Positions 8,846-59,085 of a DNA stretch of 64,000 nucleotides are shown here, in pieces. The DNA lies in IMG/VR virus record IMGVR_UViG_3300032086_003797, positions 32,001-96,000 of that record, one strand, 5' to 3'. Below the pieces are notes generated by a model. It saw only the letters and a program-made list of their open reading frames with translations. It searched no databases and was not told the DNA's origin. How positions within the stretch are numbered: the first letter of the stretch is position 1; each line of letters begins with the position of its first letter. Origin of the DNA: a virus. The position numbers and the translations under genes were made by a program.

Positions 8846-10369
8846 ATGACCGATCAAAGGTTGACAGAAGAAGATAGCTTTTCTAAGTTTGGCAAAAGCT
8901 TTCAAGAGAAATTGGGTAAGTTGATCTTACTTGATCGCTCATTCGCTAATCAGATGACTGAAGTGCTGGATATCAAGTTTCTAGAACTTCGATATTTGCA
9001 GGCATTTGTAGAACTCATTTTTCAGTACAAAGAGAAGTACAGTGTCCACCCAACATTTGAAACAATGGTTTCGGTTATTAGAACTGAGATGGATGACTAT
9101 CCCGATGTAGTACGCAAGCAGGTGATCGAATACCTTTCTAAGCTGAAAACTAATCAAATAAGTGATGAAGATTCTGATTTTGTCAAGGAGAAGTCGTTAG
9201 ACTTCTGCAAGAAGCAAAAACTCAAAGAAGCCATCCTTAAATCCGTGGGCTTGTTGCAGACGTCATCCTTTGACGAGATCCATAAGGTTATTGATACAGC
9301 CCTCAAGCTTGGTCTGGATGATAGTCATGGTCATGATTTTGTCCAAGACTTTGAACAAAGATATATTATGAAGGCTAGAGATCCTGTGATTACAGCATGG
9401 CAAGAGGTTGACAAGATTACACGAGGTGGTCTTGGCAAGCGAGAGCTTGGTGTAGTTATTGCTCCAACTGGAGCGGGCAAATCAATGGCTCTGGTACACC
9501 TTGGCGCTATGGCAGTTGCTATGGGTAAGACTGTCATGCACTATACTTTGGAGCTAGCAGAAGGAGTGGTGGGAATGCGTTACGATTCTTGTCTCACTAC
9601 GATCCCTCTGTCGAACCTACACGACCATAAAGATAAGATCAAAGAAAAAATTACTACCCTAGATGGGCAGCTAATTATTAAAGAATATCCTACAAAGTCT
9701 GCAACTACAAAGACTTTGGAGTCGTCGCTAGAGAGGCTTCGACAAAGAGGCATTGAGCCCGACATGGTTATTGTCGATTATGCTGATCTGTTGCGCCCTG
9801 TAGCTACTAATTACAGGAGCGAGCATCGCCACAATCTTGAGTCAATTTATGAAGAGTTGCGAGGCATTGGACAGAAATTTGACCTACCAGTTTGGACAGC
9901 CAGCCAAACTAATAGAAGTGGGTTGAATGCGGAGGTTATTACTATGGAATCAATCAGCGAGGCTTTCAACAAATGCTTTGTAGCTGATTTCATTTGCACA
10001 ATCTCCAGAACAGCAGAAGATAAAGTTGAAGGCGGTGGTCGCATGTTTATCGCTAAGAATAGAAACGGACCCGATGGCATCGTCTTTCCAATGGAGATCG
10101 ACACTAGTAGAGTCAAGTTGAGGGTTTTGCAACCAGAGGCTGGCTCGGACCTAAACTCGGTAGTCTCTAGAACCCAGCAGGAACAGAAAGAACACTTGCA
10201 GCAAAAGTATCAAAAGTACAAGAATAAGAAACAGAAGATGCAGGACACAAACAACAACCAGAAGGCAGCAAGTTCGCAGCTTAGTGGATTAAACAAAGAA
10301 GAATTTAGAAAGCTCGCCCAAAAGCAAGCTAACCAACAAGAACAAAAGGAGACTAACGTCAATGTCTGA
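8846..10369 (+). CDS. DnaB/gp41-like replicative helicase
   Basis: APTGAGKS, YTLE, IVDYADLL, WTASQTNR, KNRNGPDG. Confidence 0.92.
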   Translation: MTDQRLTEEDSFSKFGKSFQEKLGKLILLDRSFANQMTEVLDIKFLELRYLQAFVELIFQYKEKYSVHPTFETMVSVIRTEMDDYPDVVRKQVIEYLSKLKTNQISDEDSDFVKEKSLDFCKKQKLKEAILKSVGLLQTSSFDEIHKVIDTALKLGLDDSHGHDFVQDFEQRYIMKARDPVITAWQEVDKITRGGLGKRELGVVIAPTGAGKSMALVHLGAMAVAMGKTVMHYTLELAEGVVGMRYDSCLTTIPLSNLHDHKDKIKEKITTLDGQLIIKEYPTKSATTKTLESSLERLRQRGIEPDMVIVDYADLLRPVATNYRSEHRHNLESIYEELRGIGQKFDLPVWTASQTNRSGLNAEVITMESISEAFNKCFVADFICTISRTAEDKVEGGGRMFIAKNRNGPDGIVFPMEIDTSRVKLRVLQPEAGSDLNSVVSRTQQEQKEHLQQKYQKYKNKKQKMQDTNNNQKAASSQLSGLNKEEFRKLAQKQANQQEQKETNVNV

Positions 10370-12233
10370 GCCAGAACTATCAAACAAGATCCTATCTGAT
10401 ATAACAGTTTATATGAAATATGCCAGGTTTTTACCTGAAGAGCAGCGCAGGGAAACGTGGTCAGAATTAGTAACTCGTAATATGAACATGCACATCAAAA
10501 AATACCCCAAGCTGGAAACGGAAATCCGTGAGAAATATCAGCTTGTTTATGATAAGAAGGTACTCCCTTCGATGCGCTCCATGCAGTTCGGCGGAAGACC
10601 GATTGAAATCGCCCCCAATAGAATTTTTAATTGCGCCTATCAACCTATCAACGATTGGCGTGCATTTGGTGAAACCATGTTTCTTCTTTTGGGCGGAACT
10701 GGCGTCGGCTTCTCCGTCCAGAATCATCACATCGAAGAACTACCAGAAATTCGTAAACCTAATCAGAAAAGAACTCGGAGGTACTTAATCAATGATAGTA
10801 TTGAAGGATGGGCTGATGCCGTTAAATATCTTATGCGTAGCTACTTCTATGGCGGCTCGAAGCTACGATTTGATTTTAGTGATATTCGCCCTAAAGGTGC
10901 TCGCCTTGTAACCTCTGGTGGCAAAGCCCCAGGACCTCAGCCCTTGCGTGAGTGCCTGGTGAAGATCGAGGGCTTACTAAGCGAAAAAAGCGATGGTGAC
11001 AAGCTAAGCTCAATTGAGGTGCATGATATTATTTGCCATGTGGCTGATGCTGTCTTGGCTGGCGGCATCCGAAGAGCCGCTTTGATTTCCCTGTTTTCAG
11101 CCGACGATGATGAAATGATTGCAGCCAAGTCGGGCAACTGGTGGGAAACCAGCCCGCAGAGAGGCAGAGCAAACAACTCAGTCGTCTTGTTACGACACAA
11201 GGTTGATGAAGAGTATTTCATGAATCTTTGGGAGAGAATTAAGGCATCGGGAGCAGGCGAGCCAGGCTTTTATCTGTCGAATGATAAGGACTGGGGTACG
11301 AACCCATGCTGTGAAATTGCCCTTCGCCCACACCAATTCTGTAACCTGACTGAGGTCAATGCTAGCAACATTACTAGTCAAGAGGATTTGAATGAAAGAG
11401 TTGAAGCGGCTTCCTTCATCGGTACCCTACAAGCGGGCTACACAGACTTCCATTATCTGCGCCCAGTTTGGCAGCGAACAACTGAAAGAGACGCACTTGT
11501 TGGAGTTTCTCTAACTGGTATCGCATCTGGTCGTGTGCTGGCAGATGGAATTTCCTTGAAAGAAGCATCCCAGAACGTAAAGAAGGAAAATGTTAGAGTG
11601 TCTGAGCTTATTGGGATTCGCCCAGCATCTCGGACTACCTGTGTTAAGCCAGCGGGCACAACGTCCCTTACCCTTGGGACGTCAAGCGGTATTCACGCCT
11701 GGCACAATGATTATTATATTCGACGTCTGCGTGTAGGTAAGAACGAGGCAATTTACACACACCTATCGATTCATCATCCCGAACTTGTAGAAGATGATTA
11801 CTTTAGACCTCATGATACAGCCGTGATCGGGATTCCCCAGAAAGCCCCTGACGGCTCGATCCTAAGAACAGAGTCGGCTTTAGACTTGCTGAAAAGGGTT
11901 AAGAAGGTCACGAAGGAGTGGATTCGCCCAGGTCATCGAACGGGGCAAAACACCCACAACGTCTCAGCCACTATCTCGATCAAGGATGATGAGTGGGAAG
12001 AGGTTGGAAAGTGGATGTGGAAGAACAATGTTAGCTACAATGGACTTAGCGTGCTTCCTGACGATGGTGGCACTTATGTTCAGGCACCGTTTGAGAATTG
12101 CACCAAGGAGCAATACGAAGAGATGGTCAAGTCCCTGTCCTCTTTGGATCTTAGCACCATTGTGGAATTTGATGATAACACTGACCTCAAGGGTGAAGCT
12201 GCTTGTGCTGGCGGAGCTTGTGAAATAACTTAA
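10362..12233 (+). CDS. nrdJ: Class II (B12-dependent) ribonucleotide reductase
   Basis: FNCAY, GTNPCCEI, KPAGTTS, C-terminal ACAGGACEI; no beta-subunit gene nearby. Confidence 0.88.
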   Translation: MSEPELSNKILSDITVYMKYARFLPEEQRRETWSELVTRNMNMHIKKYPKLETEIREKYQLVYDKKVLPSMRSMQFGGRPIEIAPNRIFNCAYQPINDWRAFGETMFLLLGGTGVGFSVQNHHIEELPEIRKPNQKRTRRYLINDSIEGWADAVKYLMRSYFYGGSKLRFDFSDIRPKGARLVTSGGKAPGPQPLRECLVKIEGLLSEKSDGDKLSSIEVHDIICHVADAVLAGGIRRAALISLFSADDDEMIAAKSGNWWETSPQRGRANNSVVLLRHKVDEEYFMNLWERIKASGAGEPGFYLSNDKDWGTNPCCEIALRPHQFCNLTEVNASNITSQEDLNERVEAASFIGTLQAGYTDFHYLRPVWQRTTERDALVGVSLTGIASGRVLADGISLKEASQNVKKENVRVSELIGIRPASRTTCVKPAGTTSLTLGTSSGIHAWHNDYYIRRLRVGKNEAIYTHLSIHHPELVEDDYFRPHDTAVIGIPQKAPDGSILRTESALDLLKRVKKVTKEWIRPGHRTGQNTHNVSATISIKDDEWEEVGKWMWKNNVSYNGLSVLPDDGGTYVQAPFENCTKEQYEEMVKSLSSLDLSTIVEFDDNTDLKGEAACAGGACEIT

Positions 12234-12513: not shown

Positions 12514-12770
12514 TGAAGCCAGTAAACAGAAGACTAATGGTCGAGCCCTATGAAGAGGAGCAGGACAAAAGCTCTTTCATCATTCCAGAGGAGTACCAAG
12601 AAAAGTCACACATAGCTTATAAGATTACAGCCACTTCTAATGATTGCAGCTTGGGTTTAGACGTAGGCGATATAGTGGTTGCACACAGCACAGACCCAGA
12701 GATTATCCACTATGAGGGTAGGCAGTATCATCTGTTGTTAGAAAATCGTGTGGTTTGTGTGGCTAGCTAG
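12513..12770 (+). CDS. groES: GroES-like co-chaperonin
   Basis: MKPVNRRLMVEP, FIIP, VGDIVV, YEGRQYHLLLENRV; start placed at ATG 12513. Confidence 0.75.
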   Translation: MKPVNRRLMVEPYEEEQDKSSFIIPEEYQEKSHIAYKITATSNDCSLGLDVGDIVVAHSTDPEIIHYEGRQYHLLLENRVVCVAS

Positions 12771-14020
12771 CCGCCTATACACAGGTCCTCAAATATTTGC
12801 CTGATTTGCAAAAACACTGTTTCTGAATTGGCGGTTGGGGTGAATAGCCTTCTTTGTTCTGCATGTACGCACATGAGGAATGTATTGTGGTGTTCTTGAA
12901 GGGCGAAGACAAAAAGTTCATATCCTCCTGTGATAGCAAAGTTGCTTAACTCATTGCAGGACATCCCGATTTCTGTCTGAGCTTGTTCGTCGGTCATGGT
13001 AATGATAACCTTTTGTGCTCCTGACCTCCAAGAGAAAGGGTACTGATTCATGGTCCAATACATAGCATCTATCGTAGGCTCAAGCCCTGCGCTGGGGGCG
13101 TGCCGAGCATCCTCTAGAATTTGTAAAAACTCATCAGCCCCTACAAAGTTGCTAATAAATTGAGCGTGTCTATGGTGAACTACAATATCCTCATCTCCAC
13201 GGGTGCCCACGATAACTAGTCCAAATCGGAATGTACTAGTGATGGGATCACTCAGCAGTGGCTCAATGCCTCTTATCATTGACTCTATTTCATCATCAAA
13301 CGAACCAGAAATATCGAGAACAAAAACTAAATCTACACCCCGAGAATCAAAACCCTCATCAACTTCCCCATCACAATCATTGTCTAGATTATCGCACACT
13401 TCTTCTTGGGGGATAATTTGCCTATCACAGGGTCCATCAAAGCCACCGTTAGTGCAGTATCGGACACCAGCACGACACTCCCCAACACCCATTGTTCCAG
13501 CGGGTCCTTCATAGCAAACGATAGCAGTAGAATTTGCTATTCCCTCATCTATTGACCCATCGCAGTTGTTGTCTAGTCCATCGCATATCTCATCAGACGG
13601 ACCAATGTGTCCGCTACAGTACACAGCGCCGTTATCGCAGGTCATAACTCCTGGGGTGCAGACCCCAACCCCATAAGAAGTACCCTCTACAAATCCACAC
13701 AACTGATGCTTTTCTGGGTATGATTCGTCTATCTCGCCATCGCAGTCATTATCAATTCCATCGCATATTTCTTCGGAGGGACCTTTGGCACCCGTACACT
13801 CTGACCAGCCTTGAAAGTCGCAGGTTCTTAGTCCATAAGAGCACTGCCCTGGTCTTGCGGGTGGTGGATCTGTGACACCGTTAGGAAAATCTAATCCCTC
13901 GTGGTTGCACAATATTTGCTCACCTGGACGGCACTCAAGCGGCACAAGCTCCTCATCATCAGTACACGACTGACAAAAGACTAGTAAAACAATTATTAAT
14001 AGCTTGGTTATCTTGTCCAT
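12767..14020 (-). CDS. Lipoprotein with MopE-related Cys/Asp repeats and a C-terminal VWA domain
   Basis: Signal peptide ending ..FCQSC; three ExCDxxDNxCDGxxDE repeats; VWA MIDAS DISGS, then MTDE. Confidence 0.8.
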   Translation of the reverse strand: MDKITKLLIIVLLVFCQSCTDDEELVPLECRPGEQILCNHEGLDFPNGVTDPPPARPGQCSYGLRTCDFQGWSECTGAKGPSEEICDGIDNDCDGEIDESYPEKHQLCGFVEGTSYGVGVCTPGVMTCDNGAVYCSGHIGPSDEICDGLDNNCDGSIDEGIANSTAIVCYEGPAGTMGVGECRAGVRYCTNGGFDGPCDRQIIPQEEVCDNLDNDCDGEVDEGFDSRGVDLVFVLDISGSFDDEIESMIRGIEPLLSDPITSTFRFGLVIVGTRGDEDIVVHHRHAQFISNFVGADEFLQILEDARHAPSAGLEPTIDAMYWTMNQYPFSWRSGAQKVIITMTDEQAQTEIGMSCNELSNFAITGGYELFVFALQEHHNTFLMCVHAEQRRLFTPTANSETVFLQIRQIFEDLCIGG

Positions 14021-14475
14021 TCGGCTACGCTCTCTAAGCAAGCCTTCTGATCATGAAAAAGTTTCATCTTAAACATCTCGCTACCAAGCCAGCTAAAAGA
14101 TAATTGTTTTGCTGGTAGGTCATCGGGAATGTCTGCACTTAATATAATGGGAGGGTTCGCCTCCCTGCCTGGCATTGCGAATGCTAAAAGTAATTGATTT
14201 CCTTTTGAGGTCTGAATCACGCCTCTGATCACGCCAACTCTATTAGCTGCGGGTATGCCTATGGCAATACGAGTCATAGAGTTAGGATTATTATCTAAGG
14301 TGTCTAACGTTTGGATAACCCACAAGCAATTACGTTTTTGACCTTGTAGGTAGTAGGTTGTTTGCTTGGGTATTATGATTTGCGGCGAAGGCTCGGCAAA
14401 AGCAAAAAAAGATATTATAGCAACAAGAGAGACTAATGAAAGTACAGAAGCTAAGACTATAGTTCTTTTGCGCAT
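14008..14475 (-). CDS. Secreted or membrane-anchored hypothetical protein
   Basis: Basic-then-hydrophobic N-terminal signal. Confidence 0.6.
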   Translation of the reverse strand: MRKRTIVLASVLSLVSLVAIISFFAFAEPSPQIIIPKQTTYYLQGQKRNCLWVIQTLDTLDNNPNSMTRIAIGIPAANRVGVIRGVIQTSKGNQLLLAFAMPGREANPPIILSADIPDDLPAKQLSFSWLGSEMFKMKLFHDQKACLESVAEWTR

Positions 14476-14484
14476 CCTTGCATA

Positions 14485-14781
14485 TTACTTTGCTTCCCCA
14501 GCATAGGTCACGAAAGGAAGCTTAGTTATCTCCTTGTATAGGGGCTTTTGAGTTTCCATGTCCATGAACTTTACGCCCTTTACAAGAGTAACTAGGACTT
14601 GCTTGGTAATATTTACGTCGTCTTTGGTATATTTCCATCGACCCTCAGTAGCTTCTTTCCAAGCCTGCTGTATAACAATTGAGGCTTGCTTCTGGCTCTC
14701 ATTATTGACCTCGCCCCCAAAAGAAGCTGAAGGAGATAGTAGTAAAAACGATATTGTTGCGATGATTGTTAGAATTTTCAT
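14485..14781 (-). CDS. Secreted hypothetical protein
   Basis: Signal peptide MKILTIIATISFLLLSPSASFG. Confidence 0.6.
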   Translation of the reverse strand: MKILTIIATISFLLLSPSASFGGEVNNESQKQASIVIQQAWKEATEGRWKYTKDDVNITKQVLVTLVKGVKFMDMETQKPLYKEITKLPFVTYAGEAK

Positions 14782-14851: not shown

Positions 14852-15748
14852 ATGCCTCATATTTACTACATGAGAGTAAAATTACCGATCCTAAGATTAG
14901 CCACTCTGCTGGTGTTATTACAAATGGGCTGCATGGGTGGATGTTATTCCACCAAGCAAGTGGTCAAGAAAGATGACAAGCCACACGAAAGGATGCCCTT
15001 CGCATCTTTTGTACGAATTGAGGCAACTCATGCTATCCAGGCATGTCAAACTATAACTGACAAAGATGGCAAAGAGGGCGAGCGATGCACAGTAGGTGCC
15101 GTTAGGTATACTTCGTCAGGAGCCATCATCGGTCATAGCGAAGTAGACCCTACAATCGCATACGCTTTGACTGCGGGACATTCTTGCCAAAAGAAGATAA
15201 AGAATAAGAAAATGGCAGGGTTCTCCTTGAACACGGTGGCTAGCACTTATGTCACTTTGTCCTATCGAGGCGTGTTGAAGGCAGCAGAGATAGTTGCATA
15301 TGAGATGACTTCGGATGTGTGCATACTCAGAGTGACTGGCTACAAGGCTAAGAAGCGCCCCAAAGTAATTCCAATTTCTAAAAAGATGCCAAAGATGGGC
15401 GAGAAGGTATACAACCCCGCCGCACCCAGAGGTATTTTTGGTCCAGGGATGTTGCTTATGTTTGACGGTTATTATGCAGGTGTTGGATATAAAAACTATA
15501 TGTTCTTCACGTTACCAACAAAGCCAGGCTCAAGCGGCTCGCCTATTTTGAATGAGAAGGGAGAGCTAGTATCGATGATATTTGCAGGATTCCCAGCCAT
15601 GGAAAACATCGGGCTAGGCTCAAATCTAAACGCAGTTCGTACATTTGTAGCCGAGACAATTGTGATATCAGAGATGGACCTGTGGGCGAAAAAGAATATG
15701 AACTTAGATTCTACTGAATCGAATACCATAGAGCCACCGAAACCGTGA
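14852..15748 (+). CDS. Trypsin-like (S1) serine protease, exported, no PDZ domain
   Basis: Catalytic triad motifs LTAGHSC, SDVCIL, PGSSGSP; N-terminal signal/lipobox; real start may be the MRVKL methionine. Confidence 0.87.
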   Translation: MPHIYYMRVKLPILRLATLLVLLQMGCMGGCYSTKQVVKKDDKPHERMPFASFVRIEATHAIQACQTITDKDGKEGERCTVGAVRYTSSGAIIGHSEVDPTIAYALTAGHSCQKKIKNKKMAGFSLNTVASTYVTLSYRGVLKAAEIVAYEMTSDVCILRVTGYKAKKRPKVIPISKKMPKMGEKVYNPAAPRGIFGPGMLLMFDGYYAGVGYKNYMFFTLPTKPGSSGSPILNEKGELVSMIFAGFPAMENIGLGSNLNAVRTFVAETIVISEMDLWAKKNMNLDSTESNTIEPPKP

Positions 15749-16221
15749 TGCCTCCAGCAAATCAGCGGGAGCGTGAAGCATATCAGAGAATTAAAGAGAA
15801 CGCATATAACGCCATGCACGAGCCGCAGGTCTACGACGTAACACCAGAGGCTATGCCTAAGACGAATTATCTGTCTGGCTTGGTGTGGACTTCTATGGTG
15901 GCAACATTAGTTTGTGCTATTTTCATGGGCTTTTTATTATATCTTTATAATCAGATAGATTTAGAGGGAAGCCTACAGAAAGCTACCAATCATGCAGTGG
16001 TCAACCTTGAGCGGGTTATCTCTAAGCAGAGCGAAGAAATAAACAATCTAAAAGAAGAAAACAAAAAGATTCATAATCATATAAAGTTTTGGACGCCCAT
16101 AGATTGCAAGCCTAAAGAAAAATGGGTGATACCAGGCATCGGCTTGCCAGAGATACCAATCCAGCGCCAAAGCAGAAATAAAATACAAAGGTATGGTGAC
16201 TTCCAATGCTTCTCTTATTAG
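15745..16221 (+). CDS. Single-pass membrane protein with coiled coil
   Basis: About 45-aa N-terminal segment, TM LVWTSMVATLVCAIFMGFLLYLY, then heptad region. Confidence 0.7.
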   Translation: MMPPANQREREAYQRIKENAYNAMHEPQVYDVTPEAMPKTNYLSGLVWTSMVATLVCAIFMGFLLYLYNQIDLEGSLQKATNHAVVNLERVISKQSEEINNLKEENKKIHNHIKFWTPIDCKPKEKWVIPGIGLPEIPIQRQSRNKIQRYGDFQCFSY

Positions 16222-17006
16222 TAATAATATTATCATTAGTTTTTATTCATGAGCTTGGGCATTATGTCGTCGGTCGTTTGTGCGGCGTCGGCATCCAAGA
16301 ATTCTCAGTGGGCTTTGGACCGAAAATTTTTTCATTCAACGCATTTGGCAACAAGTGGTCTCTCGGTCTACTGCCTCTCGGCGGCTATGTAAAGTTCGAG
16401 GGTGAAGAAGATTATAATAATACAACACGAAATCCTAAGTCTTTTTGGGCAGCACATCCACTAAGGAGAATGATAATAGCCCTAGCAGGACCAGCTACAA
16501 ACCTAGCTCTACCTTATGCTATATTTTTCTTTTACTTGTGGGGTATGCCTTGGTCAGATGTTAAAGCACCCGATGGTTCAAATGTTGGCACGGTTAGTGC
16601 CCCATGGGCTTGGAAGGGAAGTGTTGACACAACACATAAAATGTATTATAATATATACAAATCAATAGACATCATAAAAGACAGGGGAGTATCAGTAAAG
16701 GACGTCGGCGGACCCGTAGCTATCTACGAGATCACAGAACAGGCACAGGCAAGATCAACCCAAACTAAAGACAACGGCTTTATTTATCAGTGGATAGCTT
16801 TCTTGAGTATCAACTTGGGAATAATTAATTTACTACCAATCCCTTTACTAGATGGCGGACATGTGGTATTCTCTATAGCAGAGACAATAATGGGACGTAA
16901 AGTTAAGTACAGGACTCGTGCTTGGCTATCCTATGTTGGTTTGGCATTTGTGGTAGGAATAATGGCGTTAGCAATCACTTCAGATATAGGAAGGTTGATA
17001 GGATAA
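16206..17006 (+). CDS. rseP: Site-2 intramembrane metalloprotease (M50, RseP-like)
   Basis: HELGH, FSVGFGP, PLGGYVK, LAGPATN, NLLPIPLLDGGH. Confidence 0.92.
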   Translation: MLLLLVIILSLVFIHELGHYVVGRLCGVGIQEFSVGFGPKIFSFNAFGNKWSLGLLPLGGYVKFEGEEDYNNTTRNPKSFWAAHPLRRMIIALAGPATNLALPYAIFFFYLWGMPWSDVKAPDGSNVGTVSAPWAWKGSVDTTHKMYYNIYKSIDIIKDRGVSVKDVGGPVAIYEITEQAQARSTQTKDNGFIYQWIAFLSINLGIINLLPIPLLDGGHVVFSIAETIMGRKVKYRTRAWLSYVGLAFVVGIMALAITSDIGRLIG

Positions 17007-17248: not shown

Positions 17249-17626
17249 ATGGAGGAAATAAAAATGTCAGATGAAGAAAATAAAGTATCAGACGAAGAAT
17301 TGCCAGATGACTTAATTCCTAAGCCACCTTCAAAATTGGCACCTAGAGGGATTACTAGTTTCACGGTATATCGCCAGGCAGATGAAACAGGAGTCTCAGG
17401 CGAAGGCGTTGTGATCGAAGGTGTGAAGATGGCAACGGGTCAGTGTGTGGTGCATTGGCTCTACCCACCACCTCGTGGTGGTATCGCTATCTTTGATAGT
17501 ATGAGTGACTTTGTAAAGGTACACATCGAGCCACACCCAGCCAATCAGACGATCATCACATATCAGGATGGCACCAAAGAAGTCTTCGGTAAAAAAGAAG
17601 AGCTTGACAAATCCGAAGAAGAATAG
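17249..17626 (+). CDS. Hypothetical phage protein
   Basis: DETGVSGEGVVIEGV segment; GGAGG RBS. Confidence 0.7.
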   Translation: MEEIKMSDEENKVSDEELPDDLIPKPPSKLAPRGITSFTVYRQADETGVSGEGVVIEGVKMATGQCVVHWLYPPPRGGIAIFDSMSDFVKVHIEPHPANQTIITYQDGTKEVFGKKEELDKSEEE

Positions 17627-17652
17627 TATAATATAAAAAAGCAAAGTAAAGG

Positions 17653-20600
17653 TTGCACATGACAAAACGAATCGAGAGCAAGATTCCTTTTGTGGGACTC
17701 CACGCCCACTCAGGACTTTCCCCGTTTGATGGCTTAGGTATGCCAGGCGAACATATGGACTTCGCCTTTGAGAATGGGATGAATGCCCACTCGCTTACCG
17801 ACCACGGACACATGAATGGCTTATCCTTCCAGGTTGAGCACCTAAAGAAGATGAGGGCAGATGGAAAAGACTTCAAAGCAATCTATGGTTGTGAAGCTTA
17901 CTTTATCAAGTCACACAAGAAGTGGCGTCAACAGTACGAAGAACACAAAGCCAGTAGCAAGCGGCAAAAGAAAGAAGAGTTTGCTATGGTTGTTGAGGAT
18001 GAGAACCGCCAGAAGAAGTTCAACCCTCTAAACATCCGCAGGCATTTGGTTCTATTGGTTCAGAATCAGGTTGGATTGAGCAACCTCTTCAAGCTTGTAT
18101 CGGACAGTTACCGTCCCGAGAATTTTTATCGCTACCCCCGTATCGACTTTGAGATGTTGGACAAATACAACGAGGGCTTGCTTGTTAGCAGTGCTTGTAT
18201 GTCAGGTCCGCTCTTTGGGGACTTTTGGAAGCACCGTGATCCAGTCACTCACGAGTACGACGCAGACATGGTTTTAGCATCGATGCGGCAGACGATCGGG
18301 GAGTTCCAGGATATCTTTGGCGACAGGTTCTACGGGGAGATCCAGTGGAACGACATTCCAGAGCAGCACATTGTCAATGACCTAATCATCCAAGCCTGTA
18401 CCGAGATGGGCGCAGAGGTTATCAGTACATCCGACAGCCATTACCCACGACCAGAATTGTGGAAGGACCGTGAGATGTACCGCCGTATTGGGTGGGCGGG
18501 CAAAGCTCCTTATGAAGATCAGGACGCTCATAGGCTGCCAGAGTCGGTAGAAGAGATCGGCTATGAGTTATATCCTCGCAACGGGGATCAGATGTGGGAT
18601 GCCTACAAGAAGTACGCAGGTCGATCTAAGGTAGAGTATGATGATGACTTTGTGTTGGCTAGCATTGAGCGCACACATCAGATCGCCTTTGATCGTATCG
18701 AGGACTTCCTACCAGACAGCGAAGTTCGCCTACCAGATTTTGTTGTGCCAGAGGGTAGCACGGCAATGCAGACCCTAACAAAGCAGGCACTCAAGGGGCT
18801 AAAAGATAAAGACCTTAAAGACCAAGAGTATATCGATCGCCTCAAGTATGAGTTGTCGGTTATTAAAGATCGAGGCTTCGCTCAATACTTCTTGACGATG
18901 AAGGCTATTAGCGACAGGGCGCAAGAGGAGATGCTTGTGGGTCTCGGTCGAGGCTCGGCAGCAGGATCATTATTATCCTACGTCCTAGACATTACGCAGG
19001 TCGACCCAATCAAGTATGCTCTCCAGTTTGAGAGGTTCCTAACCAAGGGCGGCAAAGGCTACCCCGACATCGACTTTGATGTTGAGGAGCCAATGCAACT
19101 CAAGGAGCAACTCGCAGAGGAGTGGGGGAAGATCGGCGTCAATGTTGTCCCCATCAGCAACTTCAACACGCTCCAGTTGCGCTCACTCATCAAAGACATT
19201 GGGAAGTTCTATGGCGTCCCGTTTGCAGAGGTGAACAAAGTCACAGGCGTCATGATGAGCGAAGCTACCCCTAAAGCCAAAGCAGCCCACGGTCAGACTG
19301 CGGGCGTTTACGTCCCGACATTTGAGGAAGTGAAGAAGTACAGCGAAACACTCCAGGCGTTCTTCGACAAGTACCCCGAGATCGCAACGCATGTTGACAA
19401 TCTTTTTGGCAATGTTCGTAGTGTGAGTAGGCACGCTGGTGGCATCGTTGTGGCAGAGAACTTGGATAAGCACATGCCATTGATCAACTCAGGTGGTGTG
19501 ATGCAAACCCCGTGGAGCGAGGGGCAGAACGTCAGGCACCTTGAGCCGCTCGGTTTTATTAAGTTTGACCTTCTCGGACTCTCAACTCTCCGTATGATTT
19601 CGGGAGCAATTCGACATGTGCTCAAGCGCCATCACGGCATTGAAGAGCCGACCTTTGAACAGGTCCGTGCCTTTTATGATGAGAAATTACACCCCGATGT
19701 AATCGACTTCGATGACCAAGAAGTCTGGAAAAATATTTTCCATAAAGGTAAGTGGGCGGGCGTTTTCCAGATGACCAGCGGACCAGCCCAGGCTTTCTGC
19801 CAAGAGGCAAAACCAGAGTCGCTTATGGACTTTGCAGCCATCACGGCAATCTTTAGACCAGGACCTTTGTCGGCAAAAGCGGATAAGATGTATATTGCCA
19901 ATAAGAGCAATCCAGATCAGGTAGAGTATAAGCACCCGCTTATCGAGGAGGTGCTAGGGGATACATACGGGTTACTGGTGTTCCAAGAGCAGTTGGCTAT
20001 GCTGGCTCACAAGCTGGGAGATAACATCTCGCTAGACGAAGGGAATCTCCTCCGCAAGGTTCTTACCAAGCGTGGCACAGGCAAAGACAGCGTAAGAGAT
20101 AAGATCTACGCTAAGTTTGTCAAAGGCTGCAATGACAAGGGGCTATCGGAGCAGGTTGCTAAAGACCTTTGGGCAAAGATGGTATTCTTCTCAGGCTACG
20201 GCTTCAACTTGTCACATGCAGTATCTTACGGAGCGGTGTCGTTTCAGTGCGCTTGGTTGGCACACTATTATCCGACCGAATGGATCGCAGCGTTCTTGGA
20301 CAAGGAGCCAGAGAAGCGCAAGATGGCAGCAATCAACACAGCCAAGAAGTTTGGCTTCAACATCGTACCAGCCAGCATCAACAAGTCAGGAATGGTTTGG
20401 GAGATCTCCGAGGATGGGCAAAACCTCATCCAGCCGTTGACTGCGATCAAGGGGTTGGGATCAACAGCTATCCAGCAAATCTTGGACCACCGACCTTTCA
20501 ATACGATTGAGGAGTTTATTTTCAATGAAAACATTACTTACTCCAAACTAAACAAGAAGGCACTGGACGTCCTGGTCCGAAGCCAGGCATTGAATGAGTT

Positions 20601-21087
20601 GATGGATGATCGCTTCACAGGGATGAAACACTTTTGGTCTTCTGTGGCAGTCGATCGCCCACGCAAGGAGAAGAACCTAATTGAGAATATTGACGCATAC
20701 AAAGAAGAAGGTAGCTTTACAAAGGAAGAAAAGATAGAACATCTAACAACCTTGACGGGAATCTATCCTATCGATCTAATCATGGATGATTTTACAAAGC
20801 AAGCTCTCATGAATAAGGGTTGCCCTCCCATCTCCGAGTTCGACCCCGAGCTTATCCTTTGTTGGTTCATTCCAAGAGAGATCAAGGTCAAGAAGACGAA
20901 GCACGGCAAGAAATATTATATTGTGTCAGTGACAGATCACAACGGAGCAGATGAGCAGATCAAATGCTGGGGTGTAAAAGACACAGACATTATTAAAACT
21001 AATCGTATTTACGTTGGCAAGCTTAAACATGAACCACGATGGGGATTTAGTACTTACAGCGTCAAGCATAATCTTAGGCTTTTATAA
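17653..21087 (+). CDS. dnaE: DNA polymerase III alpha subunit
   Basis: PHP domain (LHAHS, LTDHG, SDSHY), GRGSAAGS, YPDIDFD, SRHAGG, KFDLLGL, GYGFNLSHA; start probably ATG 17659. Confidence 0.96.
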   Translation: MHMTKRIESKIPFVGLHAHSGLSPFDGLGMPGEHMDFAFENGMNAHSLTDHGHMNGLSFQVEHLKKMRADGKDFKAIYGCEAYFIKSHKKWRQQYEEHKASSKRQKKEEFAMVVEDENRQKKFNPLNIRRHLVLLVQNQVGLSNLFKLVSDSYRPENFYRYPRIDFEMLDKYNEGLLVSSACMSGPLFGDFWKHRDPVTHEYDADMVLASMRQTIGEFQDIFGDRFYGEIQWNDIPEQHIVNDLIIQACTEMGAEVISTSDSHYPRPELWKDREMYRRIGWAGKAPYEDQDAHRLPESVEEIGYELYPRNGDQMWDAYKKYAGRSKVEYDDDFVLASIERTHQIAFDRIEDFLPDSEVRLPDFVVPEGSTAMQTLTKQALKGLKDKDLKDQEYIDRLKYELSVIKDRGFAQYFLTMKAISDRAQEEMLVGLGRGSAAGSLLSYVLDITQVDPIKYALQFERFLTKGGKGYPDIDFDVEEPMQLKEQLAEEWGKIGVNVVPISNFNTLQLRSLIKDIGKFYGVPFAEVNKVTGVMMSEATPKAKAAHGQTAGVYVPTFEEVKKYSETLQAFFDKYPEIATHVDNLFGNVRSVSRHAGGIVVAENLDKHMPLINSGGVMQTPWSEGQNVRHLEPLGFIKFDLLGLSTLRMISGAIRHVLKRHHGIEEPTFEQVRAFYDEKLHPDVIDFDDQEVWKNIFHKGKWAGVFQMTSGPAQAFCQEAKPESLMDFAAITAIFRPGPLSAKADKMYIANKSNPDQVEYKHPLIEEVLGDTYGLLVFQEQLAMLAHKLGDNISLDEGNLLRKVLTKRGTGKDSVRDKIYAKFVKGCNDKGLSEQVAKDLWAKMVFFSGYGFNLSHAVSYGAVSFQCAWLAHYYPTEWIAAFLDKEPEKRKMAAINTAKKFGFNIVPASINKSGMVWEISEDGQNLIQPLTAIKGLGSTAIQQILDHRPFNTIEEFIFNENITYSKLNKKALDVLVRSQALNELMDDRFTGMKHFWSSVAVDRPRKEKNLIENIDAYKEEGSFTKEEKIEHLTTLTGIYPIDLIMDDFTKQALMNKGCPPISEFDPELILCWFIPREIKVKKTKHGKKYYIVSVTDHNGADEQIKCWGVKDTDIIKTNRIYVGKLKHEPRWGFSTYSVKHNLRLL

Positions 21088-58614: not shown

Positions 58615-59085
58615 ATGTTTTGGTTAATTCTATCTTTATCATTCCCGTCGTATTTTACGGCTCAACAGACTTCCATGGCTCATACAATTATTGAGAAGAC
58701 TAGGCATGTTGGGGATGATCCATATTTGCTTGTTGCAACAGCATGGGTAGAATCTAGACTAAATCCTTTCAGTATATCCAAGACTAATGACTATGGTCTA
58801 TTCCAGATCAACTGGACATTCTGGGGCAGAGAGTGGGGATATAAAGACAGAAAAACATTCTATAAAGATATGTCCAACCCTTACCATGCAACTGTTGCAG
58901 CGATGGTTGTCTTGAAAGAAATGAGAAGATACAAAACATGCCAAGGATTAAATCTTCCTGCTTGTTATAATGGTGGACCAGGGTGGAAAGTTTCAAAGAA
59001 CAAAGATAAAATATTAGCTTACGCCAACAAGGTCAATCGACTAAGAATATATTATAAAAAAAGATTCCCTAACTGGAGCAAATAA
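58615..59085 (+). CDS. Lytic transglycosylase (SLT)
   Basis: AWVESRLNP, DYGLFQIN, CYNGG; N-terminal signal. Confidence 0.85.
   Translation: MFWLILSLSFPSYFTAQQTSMAHTIIEKTRHVGDDPYLLVATAWVESRLNPFSISKTNDYGLFQINWTFWGREWGYKDRKTFYKDMSNPYHATVAAMVVLKEMRRYKTCQGLNLPACYNGGPGWKVSKNKDKILAYANKVNRLRIYYKKRFPNWSK

Follow-up and report, generated by a model that had tools for sequence, protein, structure and literature searches.

Can a phage carry its own regulated intramembrane proteolysis cascade? The question is raised by a locus at positions 14852-17006 of a 64,000-nucleotide stretch of viral DNA (bases 32001-96000 of the 174,625-bp, 95% complete IMG/VR virus record IMGVR_UViG_3300032086_003797), referred to here as the window. 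The plus strand holds nearly all genes of the window, which also contains three tRNA genes. Three overlapping plus-strand open reading frames (ORFs), here called S1, mid and M50, are present as initially annotated, S1 overlapping mid by 4 nucleotides (nt) and mid overlapping M50 by 16 nt. The region is flanked by a ribonucleotide reductase gene (RNR, 10362-12233) and a gene for a DnaE-type DNA polymerase III alpha subunit (PolIII, 17653-21087). The initial annotation read the three products as an exported trypsin-like protease, a single-pass membrane protein and a short RseP-like protease, and proposed a phage version of the DegS-RseA-RseP cascade. We find that the assignments of the individual proteins hold, and that the region is best explained as the place where two envelope modules meet, both conserved in large marine phages of a widespread lineage: module A contains S1, and module B consists of mid and M50. 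The DNA of the region had no match among GenBank phages. The PolIII protein is at most 31% identical to that of any cultivated phage, and no cultivated phage is close.

M50 (16206-17006, plus strand, 266 amino acids) is a group I site-2 metalloprotease of the RseP/RasP type. It matched Peptidase_M50 (PF02163) at 6.5e-57, scoring 192.8 bits against a cut-off of 27.2, and passed the RseP equivalog model TIGR00054 (191.9 bits, cut-off 147.55); its nearest cellular relatives are genuine RseP proteins. The HExxH motif (H15, E16, H19) in the first transmembrane (TM) segment, the N208..P211..L215-D216-G217 residues in the third and the GFG beta-hairpin were all invariant among 23 sequences. An AlphaFold2 (AF2) model with a predicted local distance difference test score (pLDDT) of 90.2 displayed the membrane-reentrant beta-hairpin (strands 30-46 and 49-64) and kept the post-PDZ helices. 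Foldseek matched this model to RasP (top), Aquifex RseP and E. coli RseP with E values of 5e-16 to 9e-13 and query-normalised TM-scores of 0.78-0.80, and the fit to group III site-2 proteases was much poorer. In the alignment to RseP, M50 residues 3-108 correspond to 5-107 and 146-265 to 314-428. Since this alignment skips RseP residues ~108-313, the whole PDZ region has been replaced by a short loop. Consistent with this, Pfam gave no PDZ match and the model has a loop of ~20 residues at the corresponding place. A protein search with M50 returned full-length, host-type RseP from contaminated or fragmentary records and no PDZ-less homolog. M50 is clearly under purifying selection in this marine phage lineage.

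The PDZ domain is likewise missing from S1 (14852-15748, plus strand, 298 amino acids), a lipoprotein serine protease with a match to Pfam Trypsin_2 at 3e-11. Its catalytic triad (H110/D155/S228) was invariant among 23 homologs, as was C27, at which the hydrophobic leader ends; relatives carry clear lipoboxes such as LTSC and LASC. M7 does not vary among relatives, so 14870 is the probable true start. The AF2 model of S1 (pLDDT 81.6) had HtrA1, Deg1 and DegS-deltaPDZ as its top structural matches (E ~1e-11), and the chymotrypsin fold and His-Asp-Ser triad that define the HtrA/DegS group (MEROPS S1C) are both present. The C-terminal PDZ domain of that group is absent, as judged from the lack of a Pfam PDZ match and from the model, in which the protease domain is followed by one long helix (259-283).

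The third component, mid (15745-16221, plus strand, 158 amino acids), is a phage-specific protein with a single hydrophobic segment at residues ~45-68. The TM segment follows a ~45-residue N-terminal tail and is followed by a coiled coil and a C-terminal region bearing LWTPI.C and GYGLPE motifs. The heptad pattern is unbroken from residue 70 to 118, with hydrophobic residues occupying 0.67 of a/d positions compared with 0.24 of the others. Conservation across the family peaks at K-x-N-[YW] before the TM segment, in the TM segment itself, at the end of the coiled coil (ENKKI..YLKLWTP) and at GYGLPE. The family is tiny: 15 clusters matched among 5.8 billion proteins and 23 representatives among 1.84 billion, all of them metagenomic, and it is confined to these phages. 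A profile search of the 1.84 billion representatives found no cellular family, and none of the 23 is a mid-M50 fusion. Mid belongs to no Pfam or NCBIfam family, and scans of 12 members against Pfam, NCBIfam and PHROG produced sub-threshold coiled-coil noise (DivIC in 3 of 12, at E 0.011 or weaker; SlyX in 4; a PHROG annotated 'DNA ligase' in 7). In a feature-based search of the ESM Atlas the first hit was the viral cluster of mid itself; the second, an FtsL cluster scoring 0.81, lies below the trusted level. The proposal that the TM cysteine C57, taken as invariant, acts as a zinc-binding 'switch' was dropped, as the most distant members have Ser or Thr at this position. One metagenomic protein, P0138 (312 amino acids), carries the periplasmic part of mid behind an acidic, unrelated N-terminal stretch of ~215 residues without a TM segment, and may be a mis-called gene or a soluble variant.

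We place the N-terminal tail of mid in the cytoplasm at the level of the family, because of its short-tailed relatives and the invariant K39. Such a type-II single-pass layout is of the kind that RseP-type enzymes cleave. The initial suggestion that cleavage releases the N-terminal fragment as the output is not supported. The tail ranges from ~45 down to ~8 residues across the family, measuring 8-16 residues in P0144, P0152 and P0149, and the 8-residue version in P0144 still overlaps an M50 gene whose product is 49% identical to that of the window. Because the tail varies this much while the M50 overlap is kept, a released N-terminal regulator is unlikely as the function of the family. No anti-sigma or regulatory domain was matched by any member scanned.

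How firmly are the three genes linked? A scan of IMG/VR with an M50 alignment yielded 36 loci, of which 30 belong to the clade of short M50 proteins. The gene order of the window (VWA lipoprotein, p155, in some cases p98, then S1, mid and M50) was found in 8 of these 30. At one further locus (L081) mid-M50 occupies the same slot before PolIII without the accompanying island, and at 15 the pair stands alone in other neighbourhoods. At five loci M50 borders the island at its far, VWA end, with no adjacent mid and with a full-length DnaJ homolog upstream, and at one locus M50 is alone. The DnaJ homolog, with a J domain, a CxxCxGxG zinc finger and a C-terminal domain, is encoded directly 5' of M50 in L055 (1060-2076) and L063 (458-1483). 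Mid therefore overlaps the start of M50 in 24 of 30 loci, which represent four or more different neighbourhoods. The two genes always share 16-31 nt, and the overlapping pair is kept across M50 identities of 44-91%.

S1 behaves differently, adjoining mid-M50 in the clade of the window only. The distance from the S1 island to mid-M50 is 69 kb in G001, ~75 kb in G003 (a complete genome of 190 kb) and >100 kb in G004, an overall range of 69-112 kb. The initial annotation had named lack of linkage in relatives as refuting the proposed cascade; this is what we observe for S1, whereas the mid-M50 pair recurs. As judged from gene order, relatives carry two separate modules (A, the S1 island; B, mid-M50) rather than one triplet. 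Nevertheless S1 and M50 still seem to be connected. Each pairwise linkage is broken in some clade, but each pair is also adjacent in some clade, and contact of M50 with the island occurs in two distinct gene orders. Both genomes of at least 90% completeness (G000 and G003) carry the full set of S1 island, mid and M50, as do the partial genomes G001, G004, G013 and G014.

Proximity of S1 and M50 was also found outside this lineage. Two viral contigs, L103 and L104, encode distantly related (30-33% identity) PDZ-less M50 proteins of 247 and 215 amino acids, respectively, with exported Trypsin_2 genes directly upstream. L104 (3307-5615) has two such proteases, the first with an N-terminal TM segment and a coiled-coil stalk and the second overlapping the start of M50. 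In L103 (3423-5848) a single protease gene lies 0.8 kb upstream of M50, the end of which is overlapped by a 74-codon ORF for a tail-anchored protein. These contigs support the view that, in phages, exported S1 proteases and site-2 proteases without PDZ domains are functionally linked. Of the complete triplet proposed initially, then, the recurring mid-M50 pair and the S1-M50 proximity in other lineages were upheld, and a fixed three-gene unit was not.

A tentative model, which we favour at somewhat less than even confidence, is that mid is the dedicated client of M50, as substrate or gate, in a membrane complex, with S1 as a candidate trimming protease and an output other than a cytoplasmic regulator. 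The overlap of mid with the start of M50 suggests translational coupling, and the two proteins of module B would form the complex. The TM segment of mid would be cleaved by M50 or, alternatively, would gate the path of substrates to it, as BofA and SpoIVFA do for SpoIVFB. In E. coli RseP the PDZ tandem is a size filter, the impairment of which leads to unregulated, DegS-independent cleavage (PMC7728848), and PDZ-less SpoIVFB is held in check by its membrane partners BofA and SpoIVFA, both of which are removed by serine proteases (PMC10202637). With the PDZ filter absent, access to M50 would depend on the periplasmic coiled-coil ectodomain of mid (~90 residues). Trimming of this ectodomain by a periplasmic protease would then allow intramembrane cleavage or unblock M50. 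S1, encoded in module A together with the VWA lipoprotein and two small exported proteins, is the obvious candidate; it is encoded in cis in the clade of the window and would act in trans in other clades. By analogy S1 is a plausible upstream protease, though not an obligatory one. Release of a cytoplasmic regulator is probably not the output; removal of mid is more likely, or a freed M50 that cuts further type-II membrane proteins, whether of the host or of the phage. From its place among replication genes, the module would be expressed in the replication phase, before late functions. The whole set would thus amount to sensor-less envelope proteolysis.

The main rival to this model dispenses with mid as a client. 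Here the sensor-less copies of DegS and RseP would cleave host single-pass proteins, possibly RseA-like anti-sigma factors or TonB/TolA-like proteins, regardless of stress, thereby forcing or short-circuiting envelope signalling or blocking superinfection; mid would be an adaptor or unrelated. The close relationship of M50 to genuine RseP, including the equivalog match, fits this proposal, as does the predicted expression ahead of late functions. It is also in keeping with the presence of a signal peptide, lipobox or TM segment on all six proteins of modules A and B, which makes all of them predicted envelope proteins. We nevertheless consider it unlikely. Neither host nor target can be named, and the proposal leaves unexplained both the persistent coupling of a phage-specific single-pass protein to M50 and the travelling of S1 with a VWA lipoprotein. 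A self-contained RseA-like cascade, in which an envelope signal makes S1 clip the mid ectodomain, M50 cut the TM segment and the N-terminal fragment act as regulator, is improbable. The overlapping S1-mid-M50 order in the window's clade, the type-II layout of mid, the DegS-like fold of S1 and the RseP-like core of M50 are as such a cascade would have them. However, the tail of mid is not conserved, no member matched an anti-sigma domain and in most relatives S1 lies apart from mid-M50. Both proteases also lack the PDZ domains, through which the cascade becomes signal-dependent and ordered (PMC7728848), so that nothing visible would tie the steps to a signal or set their order, and the envelope-sensing switch of the initial annotation is accordingly not supported.

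It seems quite improbable that mid, M50 and the S1 island share no pathway and are unconnected accessory or core genes reshuffled within a variable slot. The cargo of the RNR-PolIII slot does differ among relatives (mid-M50 alone in L081; in L071, mid preceded by genes for SAM synthetase and an Acb5-like protein) and every pairwise linkage fails in some clade. Chance adjacency is hard to reconcile with a mid/M50 overlap that persists across deep divergence and changing neighbourhoods, and with S1-M50 proximity that recurs independently in L103, L104 and the L084 arrangement. We regard a role in lysis as very improbable. Mid would then act like an i-spanin, reaching from the inner membrane across the periplasm, with the proteases controlling the timing or the processing of lysis components. 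The features that mid shares with the lambda Rz-type i-spanin are its N-terminal TM segment, the coiled coil in the periplasm and a C-terminal Cys that is conserved. Mid also matched the Rz-like spanin family phrog_739 weakly (7e-5), with matches in 7 of 12 family members. In a distant lineage, moreover, S1 is followed by genes for a holin-like protein (2-3 TM segments) and an SLT lytic transglycosylase. The phrog_739 match is non-specific, however, since this family also matched in all 14 control genomes, archaea included, and the plainly spurious 'DNA ligase' family matches as many mid members. No lipobox ORF of at least 25 codons, as expected for an Rz1-type partner, was found in or just after mid in six lineages, and no o-spanin gene or lysis-cassette context was found. 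Mid neighbours RNR, M50 and PolIII rather than an endolysin, and the SLT-like gene of the genome is 42 kb away. The Rz TM segment starts within a few residues of the N-terminus, whereas most mid members have a long, conserved cytoplasmic tail of ~45 residues, which is atypical of Rz.

Returning to the model of mid as the client of M50, several observations weigh against it. The flanking charges of the window's own mid protein do not decide for an N-in topology. Mid and M50 are not always together: in G013 and G014, M50 adjoins the island and a short-tailed mid homolog lies ~21 kb from it; mid occurs without an adjacent M50 in L071, and M50 without an adjacent mid in L101 and the L084 clade; and mid was not found in G008, a genome that is 70% complete. 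The conserved partners of S1 are the VWA lipoprotein and p155 and not M50. Co-occurrence of the three genes may simply reflect their status as core genes of the lineage, and since the RNR-PolIII slot is a hot spot for accessory genes, their adjacency in the window could be incidental. As a separate observation on the slot, mid stands just before the PolIII gene in L071/L072 (2709-4474), preceded by a SAM (S-adenosylmethionine) synthetase gene and a gene of the Acb5 family (PF26761).

What, then, is the true partner of S1? On the minus strand of the window, divergent from S1, lie genes for a VWA-domain lipoprotein with three Cys-rich MopE-type repeats (12767-14041; PF11617 at 3.8e-15, VWA at 9e-8), the signal-anchored or exported protein p155 (14008-14475), which has an N-terminal hydrophobic segment, and the small exported protein p98 (14485-14781), with a signal-peptide-like N-terminus. 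Neither p155 nor p98 belongs to a known family, and a protein search with the VWA protein returned no match. A scan with an S1 alignment gave 41 loci, and in all 41 (L021 and L028-L060 among them) S1 is divergent from a VWA/Cys-repeat lipoprotein and a p155 homolog. A third small exported protein usually sits within the island between S1 and these divergent partners. It is detectable as p98 by sequence in the clade of the window, L045 and L046, and a similar-sized small ORF occupies the same place in G001 and L109. By comparison, M50 lies within 5 kb of S1 in just 14 of the 41 loci. Judged by this conservation of gene order, it is the divergent island of VWA lipoprotein, p155 and small exported protein that constantly partners S1.

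The same island is flanked by two Trypsin_2 lipoproteins in the distant lineage L109-L112, the S1 of which is ~33% identical to that of the window. There S1 is followed by a holin-like protein of 103-115 amino acids (2-3 TM segments) and an SLT lytic-transglycosylase lipoprotein, with a PG_binding/muramidase gene further on, an arrangement that hints at a cell-wall or lysis connection for the island. The window itself encodes an exported SLT-like protein of 156 amino acids (58615-59085) that is 34% identical to the product of the SLT gene after S1 in L109; no obvious holin gene adjoins it.

A scan for sigma-70 promoters gave counts not above those of shuffled sequence, and the 70-bp divergent intergenic region contained no convincing promoter. 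Perfect TTGACA-N17-TATAAT matches occur just twice in the 64-kb window, at 16624-16652, inside the M50 coding region, and 1 kb away at 17604-17632, just 5' of the PolIII gene. With one mismatch allowed there were three matches, compared with 0.37 expected by chance.

Site-2 proteases are known as cellular enzymes of signalling and membrane quality control. Full-text literature searches found no description of a phage-encoded site-2 protease, and a 2023 review of bacterial site-2 proteases nowhere mentions phage (PMC10202637). A PDZ-less M50 with a private single-pass partner suggests that gating of an intramembrane protease may take a new form, with a partner protein in the role of the PDZ filter; the mid-M50 system also points to a novel type of phage action on the host envelope. 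A bolder and rather doubtful extension is that a two-protease kit devoid of sensors exists in large marine phages and, independently, in two or more other phage lineages. This kit would combine an HtrA-type with a PDZ-less RseP-type enzyme, be gated by a phage-specific partner in place of PDZ domains, and have as its targets single-pass proteins of the host envelope, for example anti-sigma factors or TonB/Tol-like proteins. If true, it would be the first virus-encoded regulated intramembrane proteolysis system, and envelope signalling would be rewired or superinfection shut out. Comprising only two or three genes, the system should be testable in E. coli with existing RseP/RseA assays.

The phage set can be compared with several characterized systems. 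The likeness to E. coli DegS-RseA-RseP lies in the proteases and in the general layout: M50, a group I enzyme, retains the HExxH and LDG motifs together with the membrane-reentrant beta-hairpin and post-PDZ helices, S1 combines the HtrA/DegS fold with an intact triad, and mid is a single-pass, predicted type-II protein with a periplasmic ectodomain. In contrast to the E. coli system, the phage-encoded proteins lack both the PDZ sensor of DegS and the PDZ size filter of RseP. S1 is a lipoprotein instead of being anchored by a TM segment and is unlinked to the mid-M50 pair in most relatives, and mid has no anti-sigma domain and a variable tail that is sometimes only ~8 residues long. B. subtilis RasP-FtsL offers a second parallel, with RasP as the top structural match of M50 and mid sharing the layout of FtsL, a single-pass coiled-coil substrate. 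However, mid has no significant FtsL or DivIC match, and RasP retains a PDZ domain.

The system of SpoIVB/CtpB, SpoIVFA/BofA and SpoIVFB in B. subtilis differs in its components. M50 belongs to group I and not group III and has no CBS domain, S1 is of the S1C/HtrA type and not S55 or S41, mid has no sequence similarity to SpoIVFA or BofA, and no pro-sigma substrate was identified for the phage set. The likeness is one of arrangement. Both systems have a PDZ-less site-2 protease with the gene for a single-pass partner immediately upstream in the same operon. In both, exported serine proteases could remove the partner, and the real substrate could be encoded elsewhere.

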